Source: a virus
Taxonomy: Duplodnaviria; Heunggongvirae; Uroviricota; Caudoviricetes
DNA: 11,257 nucleotides
Reading direction: 5' to 3' (one strand)
Virus record (IMG/VR): IMGVR_UViG_2734482772_000014
Shown here in pieces: positions 1 through 11,257 of the stretch. The stretch's first letter is position 1; each line of letters starts with the position of its first letter. A program made the position numbers and the translations under genes. Under the pieces are notes generated by a model, which worked only from the letters and a program-made list of their open reading frames with translations, made no database searches and had not been told where the DNA came from.

Positions 1-282
1 CTACCTTTGCCTATTGCCGCCATTTAACCGGAAGGCGTTACCGTTCGGTTGCGCTATCCCCATGCGGTGTTGCGTTTCGGTAACAGCTTTATGCAGGTCG
101 CCAAAGTCCTCAACCTTCACGGGCGGGCGCTTCACGTTCTCAAGACACGTTTCACGGCGGCGCTTTATCCATTCCCGATCATCGGCCTCGGTGCATAACA
201 GCATGACTTCCATCCATCGCGCTGCGGCGCGTCGGTACATCCCTTTTGCTTCCAGATCCTCGGCTTTACTGTCGTTTACCAT
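1..282 (-). CDS. PerC-family-like small transcriptional regulator (93 aa)
   Basis: Complete ORF: ATG at 282..280, stop TAG at 3..1. SD GGGGGAG 6 nt upstream of ATG. N-terminus MVNDSKAEDLEAKGMYRRAAARWMEV...REWIKRRRETCL matches my recollection of the PerC/Pch family pattern (A..LE.KG..RRAA.RW..V). Family call is from memory, not a search. Confidence 0.5.
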   Translation of the reverse strand: MVNDSKAEDLEAKGMYRRAAARWMEVMLLCTEADDREWIKRRRETCLENVKRPPVKVEDFGDLHKAVTETQHRMGIAQPNGNAFRLNGGNRQR

Positions 283-336
283 GTTTATCTCCCCCAGAAT
301 GGCGTTTCATCGTCGAATGGTGGGCGTTGGTCAAAA
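263..336. repeat. Copy A of a ~75-90 bp duplicated 5' leader (SD + first 8 codons MVNDSKAE + upstream CCATTC direct repeats)
   Basis: Near-identical by eye (a handful of mismatches) to 1205-1296; contains start of the PerC-like gene. Confidence 0.8.
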
Positions 337-495
337 TCATCAGGGGTATTATATGACTCCCATCCCGGCGCGGATTGTGTTGCGTGGCCTCCTGTGTGCC
401 TGTAGCCTGGCTGATTCCGGTAATACTGCGGAGTTAGGTCTACCGGCATAGCTTACCCGTGGAGAAATGAATCATCGAATTAGTTTGGTCGGGAG

Positions 496-1167
496 TTATT
501 CCACCAGCAAAAATGGCGTTGCCCGGTCTATGACGTTGATGCCAATTAACGAGCTAACATTTCGACCATCCACAATGCTATCCCGTTCAAGCAAATGCGC
601 TATTTTTTCTACTTCATACCAGTATTGAGCCATGAGGGCTTTGGTCTTTTCAACGAGTTTAGAAAGCATTAACTCCCTGTTAATTAGCTTATCTGTAGCG
701 CAGATTAAATCGAGCATGTCATTTACGTTAGCCATGTCATAGCGATGAGGTAGCGAATACTTTTTGTTGAAAATATCGTTGTTTTCGTAAAGGGCTTCGC
801 TTACTGGTCCGGCGAGGGATACAAAAGCGGCCTTTTTTGCATCGCGCTTTATGCCATCCGCATAGTAACGTATGAAAGGGATAACTTTACCATTCTGCCC
901 AACTACACCAGATTTACTATCCCGCAAACGCCCGAGATCGTGGCTGTGAATTATGCTGTGTTTAACAACGCCCAAACACTTGGCCTCATGTACATGTTTG
1001 CCAGCAACGTAACCGTATTCATCCATAACGGCGATAACCTGTACATCTAAGCGAATAAGCCATGCAGCTACTGCATGTCCCGCTTCGTGGAATGCTACAC
1101 ATCGTTTACCATCACCTATCCAGTTATAGAACATTTCCGGTTTATATATCTGGTGAATGGCTACCAT
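496..1167 (-). CDS. Standalone zinc metallopeptidase-domain protein, FtsH/M41-like (223 aa), no AAA+ module
   Basis: HExxH motif as FHEAGHAV (FtsH has HEAGHA). Downstream SLAGPVSEAL and DMANVND resemble FtsH GGRLAEEI and ASNDI segments. SD GAGGG 6 nt upstream of ATG 1167..1165, stop TAA 498..496. Visibly lower GC than flanks (not computed). Confidence 0.55.
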   Translation of the reverse strand: MVAIHQIYKPEMFYNWIGDGKRCVAFHEAGHAVAAWLIRLDVQVIAVMDEYGYVAGKHVHEAKCLGVVKHSIIHSHDLGRLRDSKSGVVGQNGKVIPFIRYYADGIKRDAKKAAFVSLAGPVSEALYENNDIFNKKYSLPHRYDMANVNDMLDLICATDKLINRELMLSKLVEKTKALMAQYWYEVEKIAHLLERDSIVDGRNVSSLIGINVIDRATPFLLVE

Positions 1168-1223
1168 TACGCGCCCTCGCTTGCTAGTGAGGCCAGAGCC
1201 TCTGCTTTACTATCGTTGACCAT
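1167..1223 (-). CDS. 18-codon upstream ORF (MVNDSKAEALASLASEGA), stop TAA overlapping ATG of the M41-like gene (TAATG)
   Basis: ATG at 1223..1221 preceded by SD GAGGGAG; first 8 codons identical to the PerC-like N-terminus. Could be a coupling leader peptide or a recombination remnant. Confidence 0.3.
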   Translation of the reverse strand: MVNDSKAEALASLASEGA

Positions 1224-1296
1224 GTTTATCTCCCTCAGAATGGTGTTTCATCGTCGAATGGTGGGCGTTGGTCGTATTCATCACGGGATGGCTGCT
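1205..1296. repeat. Copy B of the duplicated 5' leader, upstream of the M41-like gene
   Basis: Same sequence as 263-336 with a few substitutions; the duplicated start codon opens an 18-codon ORF. Confidence 0.8.
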
Positions 1297-1669
1297 GCGC
1301 ACGTCTCAGCGCGTCCGTTGCCTGTCCCCGCTGTCCTGCCTTCCCGCCGGGGCGTACCGTTCTGGCGCTGATCACACTGTCGGCTACTACCTGATACCCC
1401 TGCTGTGTACCTCCGTCCTGCCCTGTCCACTGATTGATCTGCATCGCTCCGGCAACACTGACTAAATCGCCTTTAACGTGTCCTGCCAGTGCGTCGGCCT
1501 GTTTGCCGAATGCCACCACGCCCAGCCAGAAAGTAACCTCTCCGCCCTCTGCTGTATGGCAGGGCAGTGCCACCGCTAACCGTCCCATTGCCATGCTTGT
1601 ACCGTTTGCTGTGGTACGGGTCTGGGGATCTGCCACCAGCCGCCCGTATGCTGAAATTTGTGCTGTCAT
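1235..1669 (-). CDS. ssb: Single-stranded DNA-binding protein (SSB family, 144 aa)
   Basis: OB-fold pattern aligns by eye with E. coli SSB (G.L..DP..R...NG...A; W..VV.FGK.A....L.KG; W.D..G), Gly/Gln-rich linker, and acidic C-terminal tail FDDETPF (SSB: FDDDIPF). Confidence 0.75.
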   Translation of the reverse strand: MTAQISAYGRLVADPQTRTTANGTSMAMGRLAVALPCHTAEGGEVTFWLGVVAFGKQADALAGHVKGDLVSVAGAMQINQWTGQDGGTQQGYQVVADSVISARTVRPGGKAGQRGQATDALRRAQQPSRDEYDQRPPFDDETPF

Positions 1670-1968
1670 AGATATTTCCTCATGTAGTCACTACCTCCGG
1701 GGATAATTTTCATTTCTTCCCTTAAAGGCCACTGCTCCGCCATTGCTGCGGTCGAGTGATTCCCGTCATCACGTCCGGCCTGTGCTGCCGTCCAGTGTGT
1801 TGCATATTCTGTAAATCCAATTTCTGCTGGCTGCCTCATCCAGTGGGCGATCATCCTCAAGGTCATTTGCAGGCTTTGGGTGTCGCCCTGTAATGCGCGT
1901 TTGTCAGTAAACCCCTTCAATGCTTCACGCTCCTGATAGGTCATTTTCTGGCTGGTTTCTGTATTCAT
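1666..1968 (-). CDS. Hypothetical protein (100 aa), translationally coupled to ssb
   Basis: SD AAGGTGG upstream of ATG 1968..1966; stop overlaps the ssb start (ATGA at 1669..1666). No recognised motif. Confidence 0.5.
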   Translation of the reverse strand: MNTETSQKMTYQEREALKGFTDKRALQGDTQSLQMTLRMIAHWMRQPAEIGFTEYATHWTAAQAGRDDGNHSTAAMAEQWPLREEMKIIPGGSDYMRKYL

Positions 1969-1990
1969 TGCCCACCTTCGTTATAAGCTA

Positions 1991-2016
1991 CCCCCCCCAT
2001 AGAATTTTTTTGGGGG
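1991..2016. repeat. C8 / G5 homopolymer hairpin (CCCCCCCC-13 nt loop-GGGGG)
   Basis: Directly visible; lies between the iteron array and the SD of the 100-aa gene. No U-tract after the stem on either strand. Confidence 0.5.
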
Positions 2017-2022
2017 TGTAAT

Positions 2023-2270
2023 ATCCCTACCAATCCCTACTAACTGGCTCAGGCCACGAATGGCAAGGCTTTCAGACTGGTAGGCATTCAATTTTGTTGC
2101 CCTACATAACCCTACTTATCCCTACTAAATCACTTCAACGGCATTTTGCTGCCTGTTTTATTTGGTAGGGATATGTAGGGATAAGTAGGGATAAAAATAT
2201 ATATCCCTACCTAGTTTAAAGCCTTGCTACGTCTGGCCTCGTCTCGTTTTTAGTAGGGCAGTAGGGATAA
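2023..2270. repeat. Iteron array, putative replication origin (crr/ori-like)
   Basis: About 11 copies of core CCCTAC/GTAGGG, often as (T)TATCCCTAC or GTAGGGATA(A/T). Forward copies at 2025, 2035, 2100, 2110, 2120, 2205; reverse copies at 2165, 2175, 2185 (exact 10-bp period), 2254, 2261. AT-rich tract ATAAAAATATATAT at 2191-2204. Sits immediately 3' of the primase-helicase gene. Confidence 0.6.
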
Positions 2271-2287
2271 GTGCCGCCGTAAAAGTT

Positions 2288-4729
2288 TCAATCATCACTC
2301 TGCCCGCTCTCCACACCGTAAGCACGGGGCATGAACTCCTCAGCCTTCTCGTTATAGCCAACGTTGGTTTGCGCTCTGCCGTTAATGCTTCTCGTCAGGT
2401 AGCTGGCTCGGTACTCTTTTGCTGCTGATTTTATGGCGCGTGAAAACTTATTGACGGAAAGCGGTTTACCCAAACCGTGATACTCCATAAACGCCAGATA
2501 AAGATGATAAAGATACGTCCTCGGCTCTGGCTGGCCTGCCCATGTACCTCCGCCCATCATCATGCCTTTGGGTTCGTTCATGAAAAAAAGCGCCGCACAC
2601 ATATCGACAACCGGATCCGTGCCGCGTTTAACCTCTAGCGCCTCCTGCGAATCGCGCTGCTCTAGTAATAGTTCCTTTGCTTTGTTCTGGTCGGAAAAGG
2701 TGGTTAGCAGGTGGCGGATAATCACCGGGATTTCTCGCCTGATTTTTGCTGTTAAATCCGGGTCTTTGTCTGCGTCTGATACCGGGTTATTAAACGGGAA
2801 TATCACGCGGCGGCGGGCAATGCCCCCGTTTCGCTCCGTGAATGTCATCGGCTCGTTATTGGTTGCCATAACAACGGCATTTATCACGGTTGTGAACTGC
2901 TTTTCATATTTCCCATCAATCTCTACCGGATCGCCGCCCGTAATGGCTTTAATCCCCGCACCCTCTCCAACATAGCGGGTCTGGTCAGGCATAATAATCA
3001 GGCTTTTTCCTACGAACTGCGCCCGTCCCCGTGCGGTGTCCAGCGTCATCATGCTACCGCTGGCGGTGTTGTGTTCACCTGCCAGCGTGGTTGCTATGCT
3101 GCTGAATACGGATTTTCCACTGCCGCCCTCGCCAGTTATCTCAATGAATAGCTGCCAGTCGTGACGCTTCGCCAGCACCATAAACAAGGCTGCTTTGATA
3201 CGCTCGGCCTTATGATGGTCGCCAGCCGTTGCATGATTCAGCCAACTGGTAAAATTGGGGGCGCTGGTGGTAATATTTTCCCCCGGCGCTGGCGGGGTGT
3301 AGGTGATCCCATTGTGGTTCATCAGCCAGTTACCCGGCGAATGGGCGGAAAACGTCTGCGTAGCGAGGTCATAAACGCCGTTATCAAAACCAATCAAATC
3401 CCCGCTCCGCTCACCAATTACCGGTATTTGCAGCTTCATGGTTGCGACAACCGATTTAATCCCCTTTTCGGTGTAGTGGGCTTCGTGCTCGTCGAAAATT
3501 GCCACCATAACCCTTTCTAATTCACTGTCTGGTAGCTTCTCCCATACGCCAGATTCGTAGCAGTAAACAGTGCCACTATCAGGGTTAACCGCCAACATAT
3601 CCCATCGAGATGAAAGCAACCGCGCTTTCTGGCTGGCTGCCATTTGTGCAATATCTCCGACTTCGGCTTTACGGCGGGATTTACCGCCCGCAATGGCCTG
3701 TAGTTGTGGTTTCACGGCTTCCCCCTGAATCTGGTACATCGAATCGTTAAACGCAGCCGTAGCGACTTCCAGCCCGTTTTGCTGGCGGTAGTCGTCCCAG
3801 TCGGCTTTGTAGTCTGTCGGCGGCAGCGCCACCCAGCCAGCCACGGATAAGGCGGCTTTCTCTGCGGCATCTTTGCCCGTGTTCGCCTGTTCGTCCTGTT
3901 GGTGGTCGTTATCTGCGGCAATGATAATTTGCGACTGCGGGTGTTTCCGGCGCATCACTTCGGCAACGGGTAGCAGGTTGCCCGCATCAATGGCGCACAC
4001 TGTCAGCGCGTCAGGGCGCATCAGGTGGACTGATAAAGTGGTTGCCAGCCCCTCGGCAATAATCACCGCCTGCGGCTGTTCCGGTGCGTTAACGGCGTGA
4101 TATGCCCCGCGCTTTGCTGAACCTGTCAGGAGTCGCTTCTCTCCCTGCGGTGTAATGGTTTGCGCTGCTGCCACTGCGCCGGATTCGTCCACCAGCTCCA
4201 GCAATAACGAACCATCCGGCATAACCGGATAGTTAAACCCGGTCAGCCCTTTTGATTGCAGGTAATCAGATTCTCCCTGTGTGGCACTCTGGCGCATTCC
4301 GGCATACAGACGGGCAAACGTAGCCCTTCGCTGCTCTGCATCCTCTGCTGCCTGTTTCTGGCGCTCCTGCTCACGCTGCTGGCGGTCAGCTTCCAGTTGC
4401 TCTCTTCTATGGCTCGCTGCCACCGGGTCGGTTTCCGCTGCCCGGTAATCAATACCCAGCACATCAGCGGCAAGCCTTGCCGCTTCTGTGGTGTCGCAGT
4501 TGTTCACCTTCTTAATCAGGTCTAAACCGTCACCAGCGCCACACTGATTGCAGATAAAGCTACCGCGCCCGTTGTCGTCGAATCTGAAACGGTCTTTTCC
4601 ACCACATGCAGGGCATGGAGAATGGCGGCGCGATGAATCAGGCACGTCGATAGACAATCCAGCCAGCACATAAGGCCAGCGCCCGGCGGCGGCACTGGTC
4701 ACTTCGCGGATAATGTCGATATTACGCAT
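2288..4729 (-). CDS. P4 alpha-like bifunctional primase-helicase (813 aa from ATG 4729)
   Basis: Zinc ribbon CPACGG...CNQCG; Toprim signatures (IIAEG..., IIIAADND); Walker A GEGGSGKS in the C-terminal helicase region. SD AGGGGG upstream of ATG 4729..4727, placed just after the stop of the 113-aa gene (4724..4722). Confidence 0.88.
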   Translation of the reverse strand: MRNIDIIREVTSAAAGRWPYVLAGLSIDVPDSSRRHSPCPACGGKDRFRFDDNGRGSFICNQCGAGDGLDLIKKVNNCDTTEAARLAADVLGIDYRAAETDPVAASHRREQLEADRQQREQERQKQAAEDAEQRRATFARLYAGMRQSATQGESDYLQSKGLTGFNYPVMPDGSLLLELVDESGAVAAAQTITPQGEKRLLTGSAKRGAYHAVNAPEQPQAVIIAEGLATTLSVHLMRPDALTVCAIDAGNLLPVAEVMRRKHPQSQIIIAADNDHQQDEQANTGKDAAEKAALSVAGWVALPPTDYKADWDDYRQQNGLEVATAAFNDSMYQIQGEAVKPQLQAIAGGKSRRKAEVGDIAQMAASQKARLLSSRWDMLAVNPDSGTVYCYESGVWEKLPDSELERVMVAIFDEHEAHYTEKGIKSVVATMKLQIPVIGERSGDLIGFDNGVYDLATQTFSAHSPGNWLMNHNGITYTPPAPGENITTSAPNFTSWLNHATAGDHHKAERIKAALFMVLAKRHDWQLFIEITGEGGSGKSVFSSIATTLAGEHNTASGSMMTLDTARGRAQFVGKSLIIMPDQTRYVGEGAGIKAITGGDPVEIDGKYEKQFTTVINAVVMATNNEPMTFTERNGGIARRRVIFPFNNPVSDADKDPDLTAKIRREIPVIIRHLLTTFSDQNKAKELLLEQRDSQEALEVKRGTDPVVDMCAALFFMNEPKGMMMGGGTWAGQPEPRTYLYHLYLAFMEYHGLGKPLSVNKFSRAIKSAAKEYRASYLTRSINGRAQTNVGYNEKAEEFMPRAYGVESGQSDD

Positions 4730-5063
4730 GGTTGCCCCCTGCCACGGTCGCGCCCATGTCTTTAACCATGCTTTGCCATATCTCACGCCCTACGTCAGTC
4801 AATCCGTCATTAGTGACGCAACGATCAAGAATCTCGATCCCCACGGTTTCCCACTGCGGGTAGGACACTTTCATGGCTGCCAGTGTGTAGCTATCGATCA
4901 GGCTGCGAACGCCTTTTACTCCATTGACGATTTCCACACGGATTTGCTGGCCTGCCGCGTCAACCATGAAGTAATTGCCACCATTGATAGCCGTAATGTG
5001 GTTATACAGTGCCGACGCATACTTATTCGCCAGCGCATTAAGTCGGAAATTTTTAGTAATCAT
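4722..5063 (-). CDS. Hypothetical protein (113 aa)
   Basis: SD GAGGGGG upstream of ATG 5063..5061; ends 4 nt before the primase SD/ATG. No recognised motif. Confidence 0.5.
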   Translation of the reverse strand: MITKNFRLNALANKYASALYNHITAINGGNYFMVDAAGQQIRVEIVNGVKGVRSLIDSYTLAAMKVSYPQWETVGIEILDRCVTNDGLTDVGREIWQSMVKDMGATVAGGNHA

Positions 5064-5072
5064 GTCGCCCCC

Positions 5073-5699
5073 TCAGTGCGCCAGCGGCATTTCAGGCCAG
5101 CCGTTTTCATCCAGTTCAGCTATAAAGCTGTTGTGAAGTTCAGCAAGCGTTTCACGCCCGAACGGGGTCAACTCGCCGCGCTCCGTGTCGATCATGGCCT
5201 GATAAAAAACAATGGCGTTCGCTGTTCCCTGCTCAATGCCGTAGCGCTCAACCATTGCGCCCTCCATGTTGTTAGCCATCGCCAGACGTTCCGCGAACGG
5301 GTAAACCACAATCCCCGCCGTGCCATTGGAGTAAATCGCCACCTGCGATGAAGTGCCGTCAGACTCAGTTACCGTGGTTGTGCCGTTTTCGCGCTTCATC
5401 TCAGAAATGAACGTCGCAGCAATCAGCCAGCGCCACATAGTGACGTTATGCTGCGCGGTGAAGTCGAACCAGCCACGCGCCCCGCCATCAGCAACGGCAA
5501 AATGAATGGCGTATCCGATATCTGGCTTATCGTCGTACTCTCCGGCGTCAAGGCCGTTCACGGCGCTCTCGTAGCTGATAAGAGCAACCTGCTCATATCC
5601 CCCGGCATCATTGCGGGTCATGATATTGACGCCGTGCGGTGTGGCTTCGGCGTGTAATAAGTCGGCATTTCCCGATTTAATGGTCGGTGCGTTGCTCAT
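5073..5699 (-). CDS. Hypothetical protein (208 aa)
   Basis: ATG 5699..5697 overlaps stop of upstream gene (ATGA). No recognised motif. Confidence 0.5.
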   Translation of the reverse strand: MSNAPTIKSGNADLLHAEATPHGVNIMTRNDAGGYEQVALISYESAVNGLDAGEYDDKPDIGYAIHFAVADGGARGWFDFTAQHNVTMWRWLIAATFISEMKRENGTTTVTESDGTSSQVAIYSNGTAGIVVYPFAERLAMANNMEGAMVERYGIEQGTANAIVFYQAMIDTERGELTPFGRETLAELHNSFIAELDENGWPEMPLAH

Positions 5700-5959
5700 G
5701 CGCTGCCCTCCGCATCAATTCTGGCTATATCGACAATCGTCAGGACTTTACTCAGCCAGCAATACGCGATGGCTGCTTGCTCAACTTCGAGGAGTGGTAA
5801 TAAATCGGTCATAACGTGAGCCAGCCCATTGCGGGCGCGGGTCATGCGTTCTGCTGTTCGGTCTGCCAGCGTAAAATCATCCGGGTAAGCCTGCTCGCGG
5901 GATAACATCGCTTCGGCTTCCAGCTCTGCCGGGTGGCGATAGATGGTAGTTATGTTCAT
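5696..5959 (-). CDS. Hypothetical protein (87 aa)
   Basis: ATGA overlap with upstream gene at 5959..5956. No recognised motif. Confidence 0.45.
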   Translation of the reverse strand: MNITTIYRHPAELEAEAMLSREQAYPDDFTLADRTAERMTRARNGLAHVMTDLLPLLEVEQAAIAYCWLSKVLTIVDIARIDAEGSA

Positions 5960-6270
5960 TTGCCCGCCCTCCCTTTGGCTTCTTTTTCACTGATTGAGCG
6001 CAAGAATGCGGCGTTTGCAGCGATATCGTTCAGCGCCCGCGCAAATTCTCCGATATGTCCCAGCATTGCGCCTAATCTGTACATATCAGCCTTAGCGATT
6101 TCCTCCGGGTAGCCATCGCTACCAGCCGCCCAGAACATGAGGCTACCAATGGCACTTACGCCCAGCATTAAATCATCCACGGCATCACTGGCGCGGCTCT
6201 CAATTCCGTTCAGATCATCAGGTGTACAACCATCAAATTTGCAGGACACTAAATCGTCATACATGCTCAT
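5956..6270 (-). CDS. Hypothetical protein (104 aa)
   Basis: ATGA overlap at 6270..6267. No recognised motif. Confidence 0.45.
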   Translation of the reverse strand: MSMYDDLVSCKFDGCTPDDLNGIESRASDAVDDLMLGVSAIGSLMFWAAGSDGYPEEIAKADMYRLGAMLGHIGEFARALNDIAANAAFLRSISEKEAKGRAGK

Positions 6271-6446
6271 GCCGCCACCTCACGAACGCGGGTAATCTGG
6301 ATGTGGGAAAGGCGTTCATTTCTGGCCTGATTTAGCGCCTCAGCTTTGGCGCTGATCGCGCTGCGGGCGTCAACGATATAAACGAACTCGACTAATTCGC
6401 CGCTCCGGGCGGTGGCGCATCCTGCAACACGGAAGTAATTAAGCAT
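6267..6446 (-). CDS. Hypothetical small protein (59 aa from ATG 6446)
   Basis: ATG 6446..6444 preceded by AGGGGG; overlaps the stop of the Icd-like gene by 8 nt (ATGCTTAA). The ORF track's longer version begins at a TTG. Confidence 0.4.
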   Translation of the reverse strand: MLNYFRVAGCATARSGELVEFVYIVDARSAISAKAEALNQARNERLSHIQITRVREVAA

Positions 6447-6631
6447 GTGCGCCCCCTGTGCGAATACGTCCGGCAAAAAAGCAAACGTGATCCCGCGCCA
6501 GAATGCGGCGGGCTTCCTGCTCGGTCTCTGCGGCGATATGGTGAATTTTGGCGGTAATTGTCGGGCAATCGCGGCGAACTGCGGCGATAATCCAGATAAA
6601 TTGCGGTTTTTGGGTAGGGGTAGTAGCCATT
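6439..6631 (-). CDS. Icd-like small protein (63 aa, MATTPTQKPQFIWIIAAVRR...)
   Basis: Strong SD AAGGAGG 7 nt upstream of ATG 6631..6629. Size and position (immediately after a C4/CI-type leader) match Icd of P1/P4-like elements. Family call from memory. Confidence 0.45.
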
Positions 6632-6654
6632 ATGGCAGCCTCCTTTGTGTTTAA

Positions 6655-6845
6655 GGAGTCACCGCATAAGGTTCCAATCTTAATAGTGGCGGTGACGTTA
6701 GCAGGGTTGGAACTACCGGACACAAAGGAAACCGGCCTACGCGAACGTAGCCCCACTAACGCCACCATAGATACAGTACGGGCAAGGCCGCTGATTTGAT
6801 GTGCGTGGTGATCGGACACAAAAAAAGACGCTTTCGGCGTCTGTG
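6655..6845 (-). ncRNA. Putative C4/CI-type antisense-RNA leader
   Basis: On the minus strand, two direct repeats UUUGUGUCCG(A/G)U (plus coords ~6811-6824 and ~6717-6730) are complementary to the Icd-like RBS ACACAAAGGAGG (plus 6641-6653). No protein-coding signal with an SD in this interval. Boundaries approximate. Confidence 0.3.
6819..6842 (-). terminator. Short hairpin + U7 (AGACGC-CGAAA-GCGUCU-UUUUUUU): terminator or leader structural element
   Basis: Minus-strand stem-loop followed by 7 U. The stem is only 6 bp, so it may instead be part of the antisense-RNA leader. Confidence 0.3.
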
Positions 6846-7039
6846 TCGCCCTTAGTGTGTTCGGGGTTCCAATCCCGGTTGCTGATTTTGCAGCAACGCT
6901 TGGACTATAACAGCTTTTCTCTGCTAGGTGGTCATACCAGATAAAACCGTAACCCTTTAAGAGTTTTTCCTGTGCACGGCTCACCATCTTTTTGTTGAGG
7001 GTAAGCGCCTCGCGTACTGGTAACGGAACTCCGGGCGCT

Positions 7040-7085
7040 GCGGTATCAATATCAGGTTTTATAAGGTTGTAAGGGTTAACATTTG
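7040..7085 (-). promoter_or_regulatory. Putative promoter/operator region with twin GTTAAC palindromes
   Basis: GTTAAC-ATTT-GTTAAC at 7065-7080, followed on the minus strand by TTACAA...TATAAA/TATTGAT candidate -35/-10 elements. Sits in the non-coding gap upstream of the antisense leader. Confidence 0.25.
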
Positions 7086-7129
7086 TTAACAGGCTAGCCA
7101 GATTAAAGGCTTCTTTCTGGGCGGCAGGT

Positions 7130-7312
7130 TCATTCAGTATCACGGCGCACCTCCACGAACTCATTAACGAATCTCTCCAAAGGCTGAACACATGGCGACT
7201 GATAGCCCTCGCGGTAAAAGGTCACTCGGTTATGCTCGACGCGCTCAACGGTCACTACAGCCCCGTGCGAATCCTTGTAACGGCTTCCCGGCATCGGATT
7301 GTGGTTACGCAT
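7130..7312 (-). CDS. DUF4222-like small protein (60 aa)
   Basis: SD GGAGG 6 nt upstream of ATG 7312..7310; start overlaps the antirepressor stop by 8 nt (ATGCGTAA). Pattern GSRYKDSHGAVVTV...VTFYREGY...C...LERFVNEF resembles DUF4222 from memory. Confidence 0.45.
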   Translation of the reverse strand: MRNHNPMPGSRYKDSHGAVVTVERVEHNRVTFYREGYQSPCVQPLERFVNEFVEVRRDTE

Positions 7313-8114
7313 GGTTTACCTCCAGACGCTTAGCGAGCCAGCGTTGCGACAGGCGGGTGAGTTCTCCTTTGCGCTGCTCATATTCCATGCCCATATCAAT
7401 TAACGTGATATTGGTGCTTTCGAGATAGGCGAGGTGTTCAAGCTGTGCTGCGTTCATGCTGTCCCGTGGTTCGCCAGTAATGCCATTTGCCTGCGCCCAC
7501 TGCTTCGCCGTCATGCCACCCAGCACGATACGGGCGATCATGTTGCTCTCGTTGCTGTAGTGGCGAGCCTGCGTCTGTTTACCCTGTTCTGCGCGGGCGC
7601 TTTCCAGCGCTACGCACATCGGTTTAAACAGGTTTGCGGCACCGATACGGGCTTTTAGCTGGCGACGATAGCGGGCGGCGATTTCAGGCACGCTACGCTG
7701 TAGTGCTTCCTCGCACTGGATGAAATAACGGCGGATAGCGCGACCCTGCTCGTTGCGTTCAACCATTGCCACTTCTTTAGCCATATCCAGCGATAGCAGA
7801 TAATCATGTTCTATTTGTTGGCGAGTTTTTGCGCTCGCCAGTTTTGGCGTGCTCAAATTTTCAACACGGATAAAATCGGTTCCGGCAATAAAACCGTACT
7901 GGTCAATTCGGCCTTTAATCCAGTTAGTGAAGTCGCGGCCCACCCCCAGCGCCTTATGCAAGGCTCTGGCGCTAACAATATTGGTTTCACGCCCGCCAAT
8001 GCGTCCGGCAATAACGGGAACAATAGCGGCAAAGTCGTCGCCGTTAATTACTCCCGTGTTAACGTTGGGTTGCGGGGCGGCCTCAGAAATTAATCTGCTT
8101 TTTTCGATAGTCAT
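7305..8114 (-). CDS. AntA-like phage antirepressor (269 aa)
   Basis: N-terminal VPVIAG...VSARALHKALGVGRDFTNWIKGRIDQYGFIAGTDF matches the AntA/AntB N-terminal domain pattern (VSAR.LH..L.V...F..WIK.RI..YGF....DF). SD GGAG upstream of ATG 8114..8112. Confidence 0.6.
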   Translation of the reverse strand: MTIEKSRLISEAAPQPNVNTGVINGDDFAAIVPVIAGRIGGRETNIVSARALHKALGVGRDFTNWIKGRIDQYGFIAGTDFIRVENLSTPKLASAKTRQQIEHDYLLSLDMAKEVAMVERNEQGRAIRRYFIQCEEALQRSVPEIAARYRRQLKARIGAANLFKPMCVALESARAEQGKQTQARHYSNESNMIARIVLGGMTAKQWAQANGITGEPRDSMNAAQLEHLAYLESTNITLIDMGMEYEQRKGELTRLSQRWLAKRLEVNHA

Positions 8115-8127
8115 ATTTTCGGCTCCG

Positions 8128-8559
8128 TTATGCGGCGGTAAATGCGTCTGGGTAGAGGTTGAGAATGTCGGCTATTTCAGACTTACTAAGCCCCTGATAA
8201 CCCCCTGCGGCGGCGTTGCTGTTAACCAACTGGATAACTCGCATCACATCACCACGGCCCACAAATCTGTAGCGTAGGTGTGCGCCAATGCCATCGGGGT
8301 TCTTTTCGTCTATACGCTCAAGCTGAATATCAAGCCTGCGCTCTAACTCGCTGGCGTAGTTCCTTCCAGACGAAAGGCGGCAATAACGCAGAATATCGTT
8401 TTCTGTCCATCCCTCTATACCAGTACGCAGCATATAGACGCGGGCGCGGTGTTTCTTTGGGGTACGCCTAGGTACTTGTACCGGGCTGGTGGTCGGCGTA
8501 ATATCAGACGTGCGAATATCTGAGTTAGCCGCCTGTAATGGGCGGTTTTTCTTTTTCAT
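8128..8559 (-). CDS. Hypothetical basic protein (143 aa from ATG 8559), coupled to alpA
   Basis: ATG 8559..8557 overlaps the alpA stop (ATGA). Lys/Arg-rich N-terminus suggests nucleic-acid binding. Family not recognised. Confidence 0.5.
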   Translation of the reverse strand: MKKKNRPLQAANSDIRTSDITPTTSPVQVPRRTPKKHRARVYMLRTGIEGWTENDILRYCRLSSGRNYASELERRLDIQLERIDEKNPDGIGAHLRYRFVGRGDVMRVIQLVNSNAAAGGYQGLSKSEIADILNLYPDAFTAA

Positions 8560-8762
8560 CAAGCCACCTTTCCCCGACGTTCTGCCAGCCAGTTGTTAAT
8601 CTCTACCGCATCAAAGGCGGTAATCTTCTCGCCCAGCTTTACCGGACGTGGTAGTGAACCGTTTCTTACTTTACGGTCGATGGTGGATACACTAACGCCC
8701 AGTAATTCAGCCAGGCGGAAGCGTCTGATATAGCCTTTTGTAGGAATAGTGTCGGTGTTCAT
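8559..8762 (-). CDS. alpA: AlpA/Vis-family phage transcriptional regulator / excisionase-like (67 aa)
   Basis: Winged-HTH signature RLAELLGVSVSTIDRKVRNGSLPRPVKLGEKITAFDAVEINNWL typical of the AlpA family; position next to a P4-type integrase. Confidence 0.8.
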   Translation of the reverse strand: MNTDTIPTKGYIRRFRLAELLGVSVSTIDRKVRNGSLPRPVKLGEKITAFDAVEINNWLAERRGKVA

Positions 8763-8764
8763 GC

Positions 8765-8811
8765 TTCCCGTAACCTCTTAGCGATAGTTGTTGCTTCGTT
8801 ACGGGAGGAAG
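8765..8811 (-). promoter_or_regulatory. Inverted repeat spanning the alpA 5' UTR/RBS
   Basis: TTCCCGTAAC (8765-8774) and GTTACGGGAgGAA (8798-8811); on the minus strand the proximal arm covers the likely SD of alpA. Confidence 0.35.
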
Positions 8812-8828
8812 TATCTGTACATATATGA

Positions 8829-8860
8829 ACAATAAAAAGGCACAGTAATGATACTGTGCC
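8829..8860 (-). terminator. Rho-independent terminator for the 321-aa gene
   Basis: Minus strand: GGCACAGUA-UCAU-UACUGUGCC (perfect 9-bp stem) followed by UUUUUAUU; about 20 nt after the stop at 8877. Confidence 0.7.
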
Positions 8861-8876
8861 TGAATAGTTAGCTACT

Positions 8877-9842
8877 CTACCCCTTACCGTTGGCGGCAGC
8901 ACGTAAGTGTCTCAAAATCACATCTTCATTTGTGATTGCTAACGGTGGAATTTCGTCTTTATGAGCCACTATGCAATCCCGCCACTTCTCAGGGCTTATT
9001 TCTTTCTTTTTGCCACGGCATTCATCAGGATACTTTGACAAAAGATATATTGCAGATTTGAAAAGTTTTTCCCTGTTTTCAGCATGTCTCTCGGCATTAT
9101 GGTTGCTATTTTTTATTTCAGGTATTAGTTCCTGTTCTACCGCCATTTCGTATCGTTTTTTGCTCTTAGCTGCGTCAAAACTTCCATTAACCTTTGCGTC
9201 ATGAAGGTATTCTAAATCAGCCTTTGTTATATAAATGTTTTTATCTGACAGGCTACTCAGGTGAATTTGGGAACTTTGCATTTTGAATTTATATAGATCA
9301 CAATCAAATGTTGCTTCAAGTCGCACATATGGTTCTCCACATTCTTGTGAATGATAATGTCGTGTTGTTCTACCGCGTACACGCAACAATCCACATGCAA
9401 TTGATTTTCTTACAATAAAAGAGTTTTTGCCAATTTGTTCAAAAACATTTTTATTGTCGCTGTCTTCAACTGTCAGTGGTTTATGTGCATAAAATAGCTC
9501 ATAAGCACCGCTTTCAGATGCTGGGATATAAACTTCGTTGCTTGCGCTGGTAATAAGAAAAGGAAATGTAAACCTTACTTCTTCTGGGTACATAAGTAAT
9601 AAATCAGTTATAAAATTAGCATCTTTTTTGAAGTGGATGGTGGCATCAGATTCAATGAAATCAAGAAAGTCAGCATAGACATAAAAGTCTATATGTAGTC
9701 TATCTTTCCAATGCCATATATCATCAATTTCACAATTTAATAATTTTGATGCTCGCTCTATCGTGCAGTAGTCCAAAGGTGGAATACCTGATTCCTGCCA
9801 TAAATTTCTATGCACCACAGTTGTTTCATGAGAGTCGTTCAT
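8877..9842 (-). CDS. Orphan hypothetical protein (321 aa), AT-rich cargo between integrase and alpA
   Basis: SD AAGGTGA 7 nt upstream of ATG 9842..9840, stop TAG 8879..8877. Markedly AT-rich versus neighbours (by eye). No Walker A, HExxH or obvious hydrophobic TM stretch; C-terminal third is Lys/Glu-rich. Confidence 0.65.
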   Translation of the reverse strand: MNDSHETTVVHRNLWQESGIPPLDYCTIERASKLLNCEIDDIWHWKDRLHIDFYVYADFLDFIESDATIHFKKDANFITDLLLMYPEEVRFTFPFLITSASNEVYIPASESGAYELFYAHKPLTVEDSDNKNVFEQIGKNSFIVRKSIACGLLRVRGRTTRHYHSQECGEPYVRLEATFDCDLYKFKMQSSQIHLSSLSDKNIYITKADLEYLHDAKVNGSFDAAKSKKRYEMAVEQELIPEIKNSNHNAERHAENREKLFKSAIYLLSKYPDECRGKKKEISPEKWRDCIVAHKDEIPPLAITNEDVILRHLRAAANGKG

Positions 9843-9875
9843 TGCGTCACCTTTTACGCTGCGCCTTATTTTGTG

Positions 9876-9930
9876 ATTGAGCCAGGCGGTAAGGCTTCCC
9901 GCTTTTCGCCCCGTCGAGCTAGGCTCAATC
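9876..9930. repeat. Inverted repeat GATTGAGCC...GGCTCAATC in the int-cargo intergenic region
   Basis: 9-bp arms at 9876-9884 and 9922-9930 with a GC-rich ~37-bp spacer; no U-tract follows on the minus strand. Confidence 0.5.
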
Positions 9931-9937
9931 TATTCAG

Positions 9938-11197
9938 TTAGTTCGCCCTTCTGAGAGGCGTTACGTTGTAGTCTTTTCCGCTTTCCAGTGCCACCAGCAG
10001 ATCAGCCCACTGTGCCAGTGCTGCTTTACGCTCATCAAAATACTGATGGCGGTTATAAATCCCCTCTACGCCCTTAATGCGATGATTGAGGCATCGTTCC
10101 GCCACGACAGGATCAACACCCAACGCTGCTAAATGAGTACGTGCGGTGCGTCGGAAGTCGTGAATCGTGAAATTAGGCACATCCGGCATTTCGGCGCGAA
10201 CCTTAGCCAGTGCTACGGGCAAAGTGCTTTCCTGAATATGTGGGATCATTCTGTTTTGCATCTTCCTGGCTGGAAGCACCCATGCGCTATTACATGAAAA
10301 GGTGTGTAGCTCTCTCAACCATTCAACGGCTGGGGAAGGTAGAGGTATATCAATAGGGTCTCCGTTTTTGCTGCGTTCTTCCGGCAAATGCCATACCGCA
10401 CCATCTAAATCAAACTCTTCCCATCGTGCGGCGCATAACTCCATCTTACGAACGCATAGTGCCAGCAATAGCTTAAATGTCAGTTCGTTCTGGCGGCTGA
10501 ATCCTTTTGCGGTGCGCATAGCCTCGAATAGCCTGATAAGCTCATCGCGAGTTAGCCAACGGTCGCGGGAAACCTCTTTACCACCAGCATCAGATACTTC
10601 AAACGCTGAACAAGGGTTTATCTCCAGAGCGTGGCGTTTTATCCCGTAGTCAAAGATACGGCGTGTCCAGCGTAATACATCTGTTGCTATCGTTGGTGCT
10701 CCTCGGTCAACGATACCTTTCAACATGTCGTCAATGTGGCGTGGCTTAACGTCCTCTACCTTCATATGCCCAATGCAGGGGTTAATATCCTTATCAATTC
10801 TCCGGCGAAGGATATCGGGATGTTTCCATCTCGGAAGTATCTGGCGCTCGAAGTATTCGGAGGCCAGATCTGAAACACGCATGGCGTTTTTCTCAGCCTC
10901 CATTTTTGCCAGTGCTTCAGCTTTTCGTTCCTGTTTCTCTGCTGCTACGTCATAGCCAAGAGCAACTCTGGCTGACAGCTCTTTGGCTGTCTCTCTGGCC
11001 TTTGATAGTGATAGCTCGCTATACGAACCAATTAGCATGGCGCGGGACTTCCCTGCGAGTTTATAGCGGAATCTCCATGTGGGGGTTTTGTCGGCTTCAC
11101 GGTAACGTAGGTATAAACCGTTACCGTCTGCCCGCCCCTCGAATCGCTCTCCGCTCTTAATCCATGCGCGGATCTGCATGTCTGTTAGTTTTGGCAT
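9938..11197 (-). CDS. int: P4-type tyrosine integrase (419 aa from ATG 11197)
   Basis: N-terminus MPKLTD...GLYLRY...WRFRYKLAGK...LIGSY is characteristic of P4-family integrases; C-terminal HDFRRTARTHL (HxxR) and GIYNRHQYFDERK (catalytic Tyr region). The ORF stays open to the window edge (11257), but the MPKLTD start is the conserved one. Confidence 0.88.
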   Translation of the reverse strand: MPKLTDMQIRAWIKSGERFEGRADGNGLYLRYREADKTPTWRFRYKLAGKSRAMLIGSYSELSLSKARETAKELSARVALGYDVAAEKQERKAEALAKMEAEKNAMRVSDLASEYFERQILPRWKHPDILRRRIDKDINPCIGHMKVEDVKPRHIDDMLKGIVDRGAPTIATDVLRWTRRIFDYGIKRHALEINPCSAFEVSDAGGKEVSRDRWLTRDELIRLFEAMRTAKGFSRQNELTFKLLLALCVRKMELCAARWEEFDLDGAVWHLPEERSKNGDPIDIPLPSPAVEWLRELHTFSCNSAWVLPARKMQNRMIPHIQESTLPVALAKVRAEMPDVPNFTIHDFRRTARTHLAALGVDPVVAERCLNHRIKGVEGIYNRHQYFDERKAALAQWADLLVALESGKDYNVTPLRRAN

Positions 11198-11227
11198 TTT
11201 GCGAATATCCAAACTTTGAATAGGGGG

Positions 11228-11251
11228 TGTACCCAAAGCAATGTACCCAAA
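11228..11251. repeat. Direct repeats TGTACCCAAA x2 upstream of int
   Basis: Copies at 11228-11237 and 11242-11251 (14-bp period), within 50 bp of the int start. Candidate Int arm-type sites or int promoter operator. Confidence 0.4.
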
Positions 11252-11257
11252 CCTCAT

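Follow-up and report, generated by a model that had tools for sequence, protein, structure and literature searches.

The DNA analysed here is an 11,257-nt window of the IMG/VR virus record IMGVR_UViG_2734482772_000014, and it probably represents most of a phage-inducible chromosomal island (PICI) of the EcCIMP1 type, about 12.9 kb in length, which is inserted at the 3' end of yicC in E. coli and follows a PICI life cycle. EcCIMP1 is the PICI of E. coli MP1 described by Pick, Stadel and Raivio (ISME J 2025; PMC11773190); it is excised and circularised only upon induction of a helper phage, its canonical alpA and int are required, and it is transduced by phage Kapi1 (PMC11773190). A first-pass annotation, made from the sequence of the window alone, had read the element as a CP4-57-like integrative element rather than a canonical capsid-hijacking satellite. 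Its gene assignments were borne out by our profile searches of the 18 open reading frames (ORFs) of the window (Pfam, PHROG, NCBIfam, PADLOC and Rfam): the integrase is of the P4 type (Arm-DNA-bind_3), the primase is 38.5% identical to P4 alpha, the AlpA, AntA, DUF4222 and Icd-like genes between them have Pfam or NCBIfam matches, and ssb (PF00436), a peptidase (weak Peptidase_M41 match) and PerC (PF06069) lie beyond the primase. The classification itself stood only in part. The element is indeed no canonical capsid hijacker, as Sid, Psu and Delta are absent, but setting it apart from satellites does not agree with its 60-90% identity to, and gene order in common with, the phage-induced and transduced EcCIMP1.

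The whole window is one unidirectional gene array on the minus strand, in which all ORFs are intact and tightly coupled. The genes that carry the comparison with EcCIMP1 are listed below.

9938-11197 (-): int, tyrosine integrase (Pfam Arm-DNA-bind_3, Phage_int_M and Phage_integrase) with a P4-type arm-binding N-terminus
8559-8762 (-): AlpA-family regulator (PF05930, E 1.9e-8), 35% identical to P4 Vis
8128-8559 (-): orf143, whose start overlaps the alpA stop; 78% identical to its EcCIMP1 homologue
7305-8114 (-): AntA/Bro-N-network antirepressor-like protein (PF08346, E 1.5e-24; phrog_5817, anti-repressor)
7130-7312 (-): DUF4222 protein (PF13973, E 4.7e-23)
6439-7143, open frame to 7191 (-): Eta/Ash-like ORF (PF10554 at residues 95-195; NF033153 at residues 198-245)
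6267-6446 (-): orf59, small ORF of the replication operon
5956-6270 (-): orf104, small ORF of the replication operon
5696-5959 (-): orf87, small ORF of the replication operon
5073-5699 (-): orf208, small ORF of the replication operon (phrog_1515, unknown function)
4722-5063 (-): orf113, small ORF of the replication operon
2288-4729, ATG at 4729, open frame to 4786 (-): P4 alpha-type primase-helicase (Pri-Rep) with Zn_Ribbon_Prim, Toprim_3, D5_N, DUF5906 and Pox_D5 domains
1-282 (-): PerC-family regulator (PF06069, E 1.8e-28), 90% identical to EcCIMP1_025

The element and EcCIMP1 have the same order of 16 genes, which runs through int, alpA, orf143, AntA, DUF4222, Ash/Icd, the small ORFs, orf208, orf113, the primase and PerC to a 61-aa ORF, PRiA4_ORF3 and a 119-aa ORF. 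Identity to the EcCIMP1 proteins is 78% for orf143, 71% for AntA (69% to a gene of Edwardsiella phage EPP-1), 72% for DUF4222, 84% for Icd, 60% for orf87, 64% for orf208, 88% for orf113 and 90% for PerC, and the five small ORFs of the replication operon as a group are 60-88% identical to their homologues. In the primase, the likeness (69%) is confined to the N-terminal half (residues 4-367). The antirepressor, Ash protein and primase, which are conserved among EcCIMP1-like elements while int, AlpA and PerC are variable (PMC11773190), are all present in the window, and both elements have C4 and isrK RNAs and a cos-like 49-mer and carry neither terminase nor capsid genes. They differ in the integrase (29% identical) and the integration site, which is tRNA-Thr in EcCIMP1, in AlpA (33%) and in the C-terminal helicase/DNA-binding half of the primase, which is DUF927-type with other iterons in EcCIMP1 and D5-type here. 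EcCIMP1 (20 kb) also has DUF2824, gp7, gp20 and gp16-like ejection genes and a second alpA/xis, all of which the 12.9-kb element lacks; in their place it has orf321, orf100, ssb and the peptidase gene. In the closest complete relative, from strain E7, the three distal ORFs are 97-100% identical to those of EcCIMP1. By megablast against a phage collection, the window had no match.

The same assignment is reached from the general layout of PICIs. Gram-negative PICIs, including the HE-PICIs, have been divided into Integration, Bro, Replication and Late zones (Tommasini, Mageeney and Williams 2023, PMC10111431), and the element follows this plan with its unidirectional transcription, int/AlpA, Bro-N/AntA with C4/isrK, primase/DUF5906/SSB/ori and a dynamic late zone. 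The Integration zone consists of int, an int-alpA RNA, a cargo slot and alpA, and the Bro zone of orf143, AntA, DUF4222 and the Eta/Ash ORF with its isrK/seqA-like leader and C4/CI RNA. The Replication zone holds an icd/kil-like ORF, the five small ORFs, the alpha-type primase-helicase, an iteron origin, orf100 and ssb; the accessory zone holds the peptidase and PerC genes and, outside the window, the cos-like region, the 61-aa ORF, PRiA4_ORF3 and the 119-aa ORF. It departs from the plan in that its late zone has no captured late gene, only the cos-like region and accessory genes. For int, alpA and pri-rep, the markers of Gram-negative PICIs, we found co-orientation and a total length (about 12.9 kb) within the range of about 10-15 kb. 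By the rules of SatelliteFinder (PMC10085698), three of seven P4 core components are present, so that the element is not P4-like, and three of five PICI core components, which places it in 'Type C', the class to which Pick et al. likewise assigned EcCIMP1 (PMC11773190).

EcCICFT073, the archetypal E. coli cos-type PICI, which has a helper-type cos and is packaged as multimers in full-size capsids (PMC6092414, PMC6739421), has int, alpA, Icd-like, DUF4222, Pri-Rep, ori, ssb and PerC in the same order as the window element, and the two are 54% identical in the C-terminal part of the primase, 56% in SSB and 47% in PerC. However, EcCICFT073 has the lambda-type cosN twice and the TerS-retargeting protein RppA, neither of which occurs in the window element, and it lacks AntA and, even at E <= 1, the C4/isrK RNA, both of which the window element has. 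The type of cos or cos-like sequence differs as well, being phiP27/SfV (HNH-dependent) for the cos-like region of the window element and lambda-type in EcCICFT073. In RefSeq, two EcCICFT073 genes (locus L007, 7969-9371), upstream of cos1-rppA-cos2, are labelled major capsid and head decoration protein; the window has no counterpart of them.

The ends of the element could be placed using an E. coli contig (L015, GCA_000797915.1), found by way of the exact peptidase sequence, which is 100% identical to window positions 1-11167 and runs on for 9.5 kb. Past PerC it carries the 61-aa ORF, the PRiA4_ORF3 protein and, on the other strand, the 119-aa ORF, followed by dinD, yicG and ligB. The empty K-12 site identifies the final ~21 nt of yicC, CAGATTCAGAAYATCGAATAA, as the att core; attL lies ~130 bp beyond the right window end and attR at ~12707 of the contig, which gives an element of ~12.9 kb, all but the last ~1.7 kb of which is in the window. 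The same int adjoins yicC in loci L008-L013. The first-pass annotation had expected a tRNA target. Since the core is at the yicC 3' end and the window has no tRNA gene, the target is not a tRNA. The main text of the four-zone paper does not mention yicC (PMC10111431). A GGTACACCYTTGTGTACAC repeat was also considered as the att core and rejected, because it occurs in relatives at another chromosomal site and the empty K-12 site puts the core at the yicC 3' end. It is a palindrome near both element ends but internal to the element (locus L001, 7363-7381 and 19903-19921), and short direct repeats of the GTACCCAAA type lie upstream of int (window 11221-11253); together, these repeats and the palindrome may be arm-type binding sites of Int. 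Few genomes carry the window variant: the peptidase sequence occurs on 10 contigs, at least 80% of the window is present in 14 of 5426 complete E. coli genomes, and parts of it in 768.

A P4-type RNA immunity cassette, missed by the first-pass annotation, lies between the DUF4222 gene and the replication operon and consists of the following parts.

6858-6910 (-): c4-a1b1 target motif (Rfam RF03163, 53.6 bits)
6821-6897 (-): isrK (P4 seqA-like) RNA (Rfam RF01394, 74.6 bits)
6685-6772 (-): C4/CI-type antisense RNA (Rfam RF01695, 82.1 bits against a gathering score of 45)
6641-6677 (-): a2/b2 target sites of the C4 RNA, b2 overlapping the Shine-Dalgarno sequence of the icd/kil-like ORF

The leader (6821-6910) combines the a1/b1 targets with the isrK hairpin-terminator, with a terminator-like hairpin at 6842-6826. 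The C4 loop TCCTTTGTGT is complementary to ACACAAAGGA at 6650-6641, and GTTCCAA to TTGGAAC at both 6677-6671 and 6872-6866. When seven copies of the C4 RNA, including P4 CI, were compared, 27 of 27 pairs were kept in every sequence and 14 of them showed compensatory changes, a number reached in none of 500 shuffles. The loops differ among the seven elements and the targets co-vary: in each, loop and linker are complementary to sites at +5 to +8 and +35 to +38 (overlapping the Shine-Dalgarno sequence) and to upstream sites. This is the design of P1 c4 and of P4 CI-seqA-seqC (PMC4825925). The C4 and isrK pair is present in the same relative position in P4 and EcCIMP1, and none was found in EcCICFT073 at E <= 1. 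We withdraw RNA immunity in PICIs as a new finding, since C4/isrK RNAs have already been reported in PICI Bro zones within the Eta-like gene, just as P4 eta/kil overlaps CI (PMC10111431).

The cassette lies inside an open reading frame. The Pfam 'Ash' match (residues 95-195 of the 250-aa ORF) covers the same span as the isrK, c4-a1b1 and C4 genes (window 6607-6909), a region in which the protein is only 25% identical to EcCIMP1 and the RNA structures score 81-82 bits. Part of the 'Ash family' signal may come from the RNA. The C-terminal 63 codons of the Eta/Ash-like ORF (6439-6630) are the Icd/Kil-like ORF; the whole is 39% identical to the P4 'cI' ORF, and gene callers give a 234-aa product. 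This ORF corresponds to P4 eta, which overlaps CI. We had taken the 'Ash' ORF for a spurious translation of RNA genes; as P4 eta, despite its overlap with CI, is a genuine gene (PMC10111431), we now put this idea less strongly.

The replicon is also that of a PICI.

2021-2275: putative replication origin, 8-bp iterons in both orientations

Eight copies of the iteron ATCCCTAC, four per strand, lie within 2023-2268, directly 3' of the primase gene; 0.77 copies are expected by chance for the whole window, and none of 200 shuffles reached eight. The element thus has the published PICI origin organisation, just 3' of rep with two iteron sets around an AT-rich stretch (PMC6092414), and EcCICFT073 and EcCIMP1 have the same layout with different iterons of their own. 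The primase-helicase is chimeric, being 69% identical to the DUF927-type EcCIMP1 protein over residues 4-367 and 54% to EcCICFT073 Pri-Rep over residues 379-819. As each element has its own iterons, origin specificity appears to go with the C-terminal half of the primase.

The first-pass annotation had found nothing resembling Psu, Sid or Delta/Ogr, and profiles, PHROGs and tblastn all agreed with it. None of the 18 window ORFs matched Psu (PF07455), Ogr_Delta (PF04606) or the Derepression/epsilon family (PF25738), nor the PHROGs that hold Sid (phrog_6165), Psu (phrog_6366), Delta (phrog_603) and epsilon (phrog_10016). P4's own proteins, used as positive controls, matched those families at E 1e-22 to 1e-116 (Sid 6e-116, Psu 1e-88, epsilon 9e-51, Delta 6.5e-22); the libraries are thus able to find these genes and the absence test is valid. 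With P4 proteins as tblastn queries against six frames of the window and the closest complete relative, no match was below E 0.08; the best E for Sid was 0.93, and for Psu 2.8, at the E7 locus only, with no Psu match in the window at E <= 10. A capsid-redirecting module outside the window, which had been suggested as one explanation, is contradicted by the rest of the element, since the three ORFs of the flank up to attR are not Sid-, Psu- or Delta-like in Pfam and PHROG profiles. The ORF at 5073-5699, which had been singled out as a candidate Sid, Psu or Delta, was rejected as a diverged Sid or Psu: orf208 falls in phrog_1515, not in the Sid or Psu PHROGs, and nothing supports the idea. Its AF2 model (pLDDT 43.6) is unusable, and neither it nor the model of orf143 supports a Sid- or Psu-like protein. 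The absence extends to the family, as none of 30 IMG/VR loci with orf208 relatives has a homologue of P4 epsilon, Sid, Delta, Psu or RppA. We found no capsid-related match in window or flank, no TerS match, no RppA by tblastn (E > 0.3) or PDB sequence search, none of the terS, terL, portal, protease and major capsid genes which a capsid-forming PICI (cf-PICI) has of its own, and neither tail nor lysis genes in the element. The part of epsilon may be taken by AntA, as an analogue without homology to it.

The element has a cos-like region of the phiP27/SfV type, which was also missed by the first-pass annotation because it starts 10 bp past the window edge. It occupies 11177-11265 of L015, the stretch from 10 to 98 bp past window position 1, with PerC on one side and the 61-aa ORF on the other, and recurs at L001 8740-8828, L006 1557-1645 and L023 10524-10612. 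The region is homologous to the intergenic region between the HNH endonuclease gene and terS of SfV-like phages. A 49-nt arm within it differs from the left end of the SfV genome at a single position (48/49) and is also found in the E7 element, in EcCIMP1 (49/49) and in other relatives; in the phage records, the corresponding sequence sits where the genomes of SfV, SfIV, SfI, SfII and ST64B end. The cos-site annotated in phiP27 by its depositors, CGCCCGCCCC, aligns to TGCCCGCCCC of the element. SfI, SfII, SfIV and SfV are cos packagers (PMC3851460); cos is not mentioned in the EcCIMP1 paper (PMC11773190). A search for cos sites had been proposed, and within the window it was negative. Lambda cosN was absent from the window, the E7 element and EcCIMP1 but found twice in EcCICFT073 as a control, the P2/P4 cos GGCGAGGCGGGGAAAGCAC was absent at <=3 mismatches from the same three sequences but found in P4, and the window had no P22 pac site; the cos-like sequence was found in the flank.

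Unit lengths are in keeping with packaging as multimers. For the window element (~12.9 kb) three units come to 38.8 kb, for the E7 element (~12.7 kb) likewise three to ~38.2 kb, and for EcCIMP1 (19.96 kb) two to 39.9 kb; the genomes of SfV, SfI, SfIV, ST64B and SfII are 37.1-41.5 kb. From these sequence comparisons we tentatively propose, at somewhat less than an even chance, that the element is packaged by cos mimicry without capsid remodelling, as multimers and by SfV-like helpers. It is possible, at the same guarded level, that EcCIMP1-type PICIs in general are cos satellites of SfV/phiP27/ST64B-like temperate myoviruses (HNH-TerS(P27)-TerL) which travel as integer multimers in unmodified heads.

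Several points weigh against the proposed identity of the element or its packaging. First, 'Type C' (three of five PICI components) is considered uncertain by the authors of SatelliteFinder (PMC10085698), and induction, excision, replication and transfer of the window element are all inferred by analogy. Second, about 8 of the 22 bases near the presumed nick site are not those of SfV, and no database phage exceeds 88% over the whole 89-nt cos-like region, so that the site could be a relic of late-gene capture. Third, a helper has been proven for one family member alone, EcCIMP1, and it is a podovirus, Kapi1 (PMC11773190); an SfV-like helper is our own proposal and no published result. EcCIMP1 also has the P22-type ejection genes, which the window element lacks. 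Fourth, the window variant itself is rare.

The second and third of these points feed the strongest alternative, a functional satellite whose cos-like region is a relic and which is transferred by P22-like headful packaging, by generalised or lateral transduction, or by a novel redirecting function, for which orf143, orf208, orf113, the 61-aa ORF and PRiA4_ORF3 are candidates. We regard this as unlikely, although it draws on several lines of evidence. Besides the Kapi1 result (PMC11773190) and the diverged nick-site region, siblings at the yicC site (L008, L012, L013) and EcCIMP1 (L006) carry P22 gp7/gp20/gp16-like ejection genes after PerC. Also, orf143 is >80% conserved across Enterobacterales, has a DNA-binding-like fold and could be a packaging-specificity factor. 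Its AF2 model (pLDDT 71.9) has an H-H-H-beta-beta, winged-helix-like topology, with winged-helix proteins as best Foldseek matches only at E >= 0.08 and no PDB sequence match at E <= 0.4. A homology to RppA, suggested by the same length (144 aa), was rejected, as there is no sequence similarity to RppA and the winged-helix-like fold is generic. Finally, in L023 the region runs into phage late genes, as a captured fragment would.

Against this alternative, elements that elsewhere diverge by 10-40% retain the 49-nt arm almost unchanged (48-49 of 49), which suggests selection, and in three family members a whole number of units adds up to 38-40 kb. No P22 pac site was found, and P22-type ejection genes downstream of the primase, present in L008, L012 and L013, had no match in the window or L015. 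Moreover, transfer of EcCIMP1 by Kapi1 is very inefficient and a Kapi1-like prophage occurs in only 2 of 21 carrier strains (PMC11773190).

The relatives show how variable this late zone is. Among the 30 loci with orf208 relatives, the primase is present in 30, int in 27, orf143 in 25, ssb in 25 and PerC in 18. In about 20 loci (among L026-L051), PerC is followed by a superinfection-immunity gene, a 930-aa tape-measure gene and a tail-completion gene. The sibling late zones thus carry DNA-delivery proteins of different helper types, which may be functional satellite genes or captured or adjacent prophage genes. L023 closely resembles the window at the DNA level, with ~98% identity from icd to ssb and in the PerC region; at 10520-16190, its cos-like region is followed directly by terS, terL, portal, protease and capsid genes. 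We withdrew its reading as a capsid-forming PICI sibling, since a complete SfV-like prophage (L052, 12501-18171) carries the same late genes with 98-99% identity; in L023 they are either captured, or helper-embedded or adjacent. Of 5426 E. coli genomes, 867 carry the SfV-like capsid module of L023 and L052. All these late-zone modules are missing from the window variant, which, compared with L023, adds the peptidase cassette.

A decayed P4-like satellite, which has lost the sid-delta-psu operon, epsilon and cos and persists as an immobile remnant with int, alpA, CI RNA and alpha, is improbable in our estimate. The likeness to P4 is real: Int (26%), Vis/AlpA (35%), the Eta/'cI' ORF (39%) and the alpha primase-helicase (38.5% over residues 26-822) stand in the same order, 8-bp iterons lie beside alpha, and the CI (C4) RNA and seqA (isrK) leader are in common, in the same order and with a nearly identical downstream ribosome-binding site. 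The P4 late operon would lie between int and alpA, where the window has only orf321. However, these identities of 26-39% compare with 60-90% to EcCIMP1, which is functional (PMC11773190). The intact, tightly coupled ORFs and an RNA cassette with compensatory evolution and co-varying targets do not fit a remnant, and relatives in many genera and at several integration sites, with swapped modules, argue for ongoing mobility. As none of 30 relatives has a P4 late gene, the absence is ancestral to the family and not a recent decay. Compared with P4, the element lacks Sid, Delta, Psu, epsilon, gop/beta/cII and the P2-type 19-nt cos, has AntA, DUF4222, ssb and PerC in addition, and uses yicC where P4 uses tRNA-Leu.

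That the element is a CP4-57-like, non-satellite integrative island which merely uses a P4-family integrase and AlpA is highly improbable: it has with CP4-57 of E. coli K-12 a P4-family integrase, an AlpA-family gene and one ~320-aa ORF between them, like yfjH, but among 18 window proteins searched by tblastn against the K-12 CP4-57 region only int matched (27% to IntA), orf321 is unrelated to YfjH, and CP4-57 lacks the alpha-type primase and replicon with iteron origin, the immunity RNA, the AntA/DUF4222/Icd block, PerC and the phage cos-like region which the window element or its flank has.

Returning to an EcCIMP1-type PICI as the preferred reading, a working cycle can be drawn by analogy with P4, P1, EcCICFT073 and EcCIMP1. 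In the resting state, the C4/CI RNA would pair with a1/b1 and a2/b2, and this pairing would occlude the icd/kil ribosome-binding site or terminate the transcript, keeping the primase operon off. A helper phage would then raise the expression of alpA, whose product is the presumed master activator from its role in EcCICFT073 and EcCIMP1 (PMC6092414, PMC11773190), and read-through together with translation of the Eta-like ORF could override the RNA block. Int would excise the element, the primase-helicase would replicate it from the ATCCCTAC iterons, and AntA may lift the repression of a helper prophage in the same cell, as epsilon does with P2. Finally, the cos-like region would let the HNH/TerS(P27)/TerL terminase of an SfV-like helper cut the concatemers, and trimers, at 38.8 kb (3 x 12.9) about as long as a helper genome (37-41.5 kb), would occupy heads of full size.

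The other features of the window are the following.

9863-9929 (-): int-alpA RNA motif (Rfam RF02996, 60.6 bits against a gathering score of 35.8)
8877-9842 (-): orf321, low-GC cargo gene in the variable int-alpA slot
1666-1968 (-): orf100, weak phrog_4935 match only; 100% identical in L023
1235-1669 (-): SSB (PF00436, E 4.3e-15), 56% identical to EcCICFT073 SSB
496-1167 (-): stand-alone FtsH/M41-like metallopeptidase with a HEAGH motif (weak Peptidase_M41 match)
285-449 (-): orf54, with the C-terminal tail QRPPFDDETPF as in SSB, within a 95-nt repeat

The int-alpA RNA, also found in relatives, lies immediately past the int stop codon and upstream of orf321. The latter has a GC content of 0.37 (window 0.51) and a terminator-like hairpin at 8861-8838; it had no Pfam, PHROG or NCBIfam match and only a weak PADLOC match (PDC-S31, E 0.002), and its exact protein turns up in 3139 indexed blocks of the assembly collection. 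In relatives, the slot holds an unrelated 293-aa gene or a 316-aa gene with the C-terminal 74 aa in common (77%), and it is a candidate accessory or defence hotspot. No convincing PADLOC match to defence systems was obtained for orf321, the peptidase or the distal ORFs. The five small ORFs (4722-6446) are tightly coupled and fall in phrog_6805, phrog_1515 and phrog_37628, all of unknown function.

The peptidase is without an AAA module, and sequence comparison with proteins of known structure gave the AFG3L2 protease domain (E 0.0013) as its sole relative. It is flanked by a 95-nt direct repeat (252-346 and 1193-1287, 89% identical) which duplicates the ssb-3'/perC-5' junction. In L023, ssb adjoins perC with no peptidase between them, and the peptidase is thus a recombinational insertion at the ssb-perC junction; orf54 is probably a remnant of the ssb 3' end. 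The PerC protein of EcCIMP1 (EcCIMP1_025) repressed LEE expression (PMC11773190).

These findings will not greatly surprise a specialist, and their chief lead is the cos-like site just outside the window. An element with a P4-family int, AlpA and an alpha-type primase but without sid, psu and delta is not to be annotated as a degraded P4 or as 'CP4-like'; EcCIMP1-type elements are probably an abundant and functional PICI lineage, which SatelliteFinder scores only as the uncertain 'Type C'. Judged by its sequence, the lineage has a whole regulatory cassette in common with P4, as the CI/seqA RNA cassette stands in the same position in both, beyond three distant proteins, and this bears on the claimed independent evolution of P4 and PICIs. 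The conserved phiP27/SfV-type cos-like region provides a concrete and testable hypothesis for the packaging route and the true helpers of EcCIMP1-like islands. If it is true, EcCIMP1-type PICIs would need no capsid-remodelling or terminase-retargeting protein, Kapi1 would be a poor surrogate helper, and a P4-derived early region (int, AlpA, CI RNA and alpha) would have traded a P2-specific late operon for the cos of another helper.

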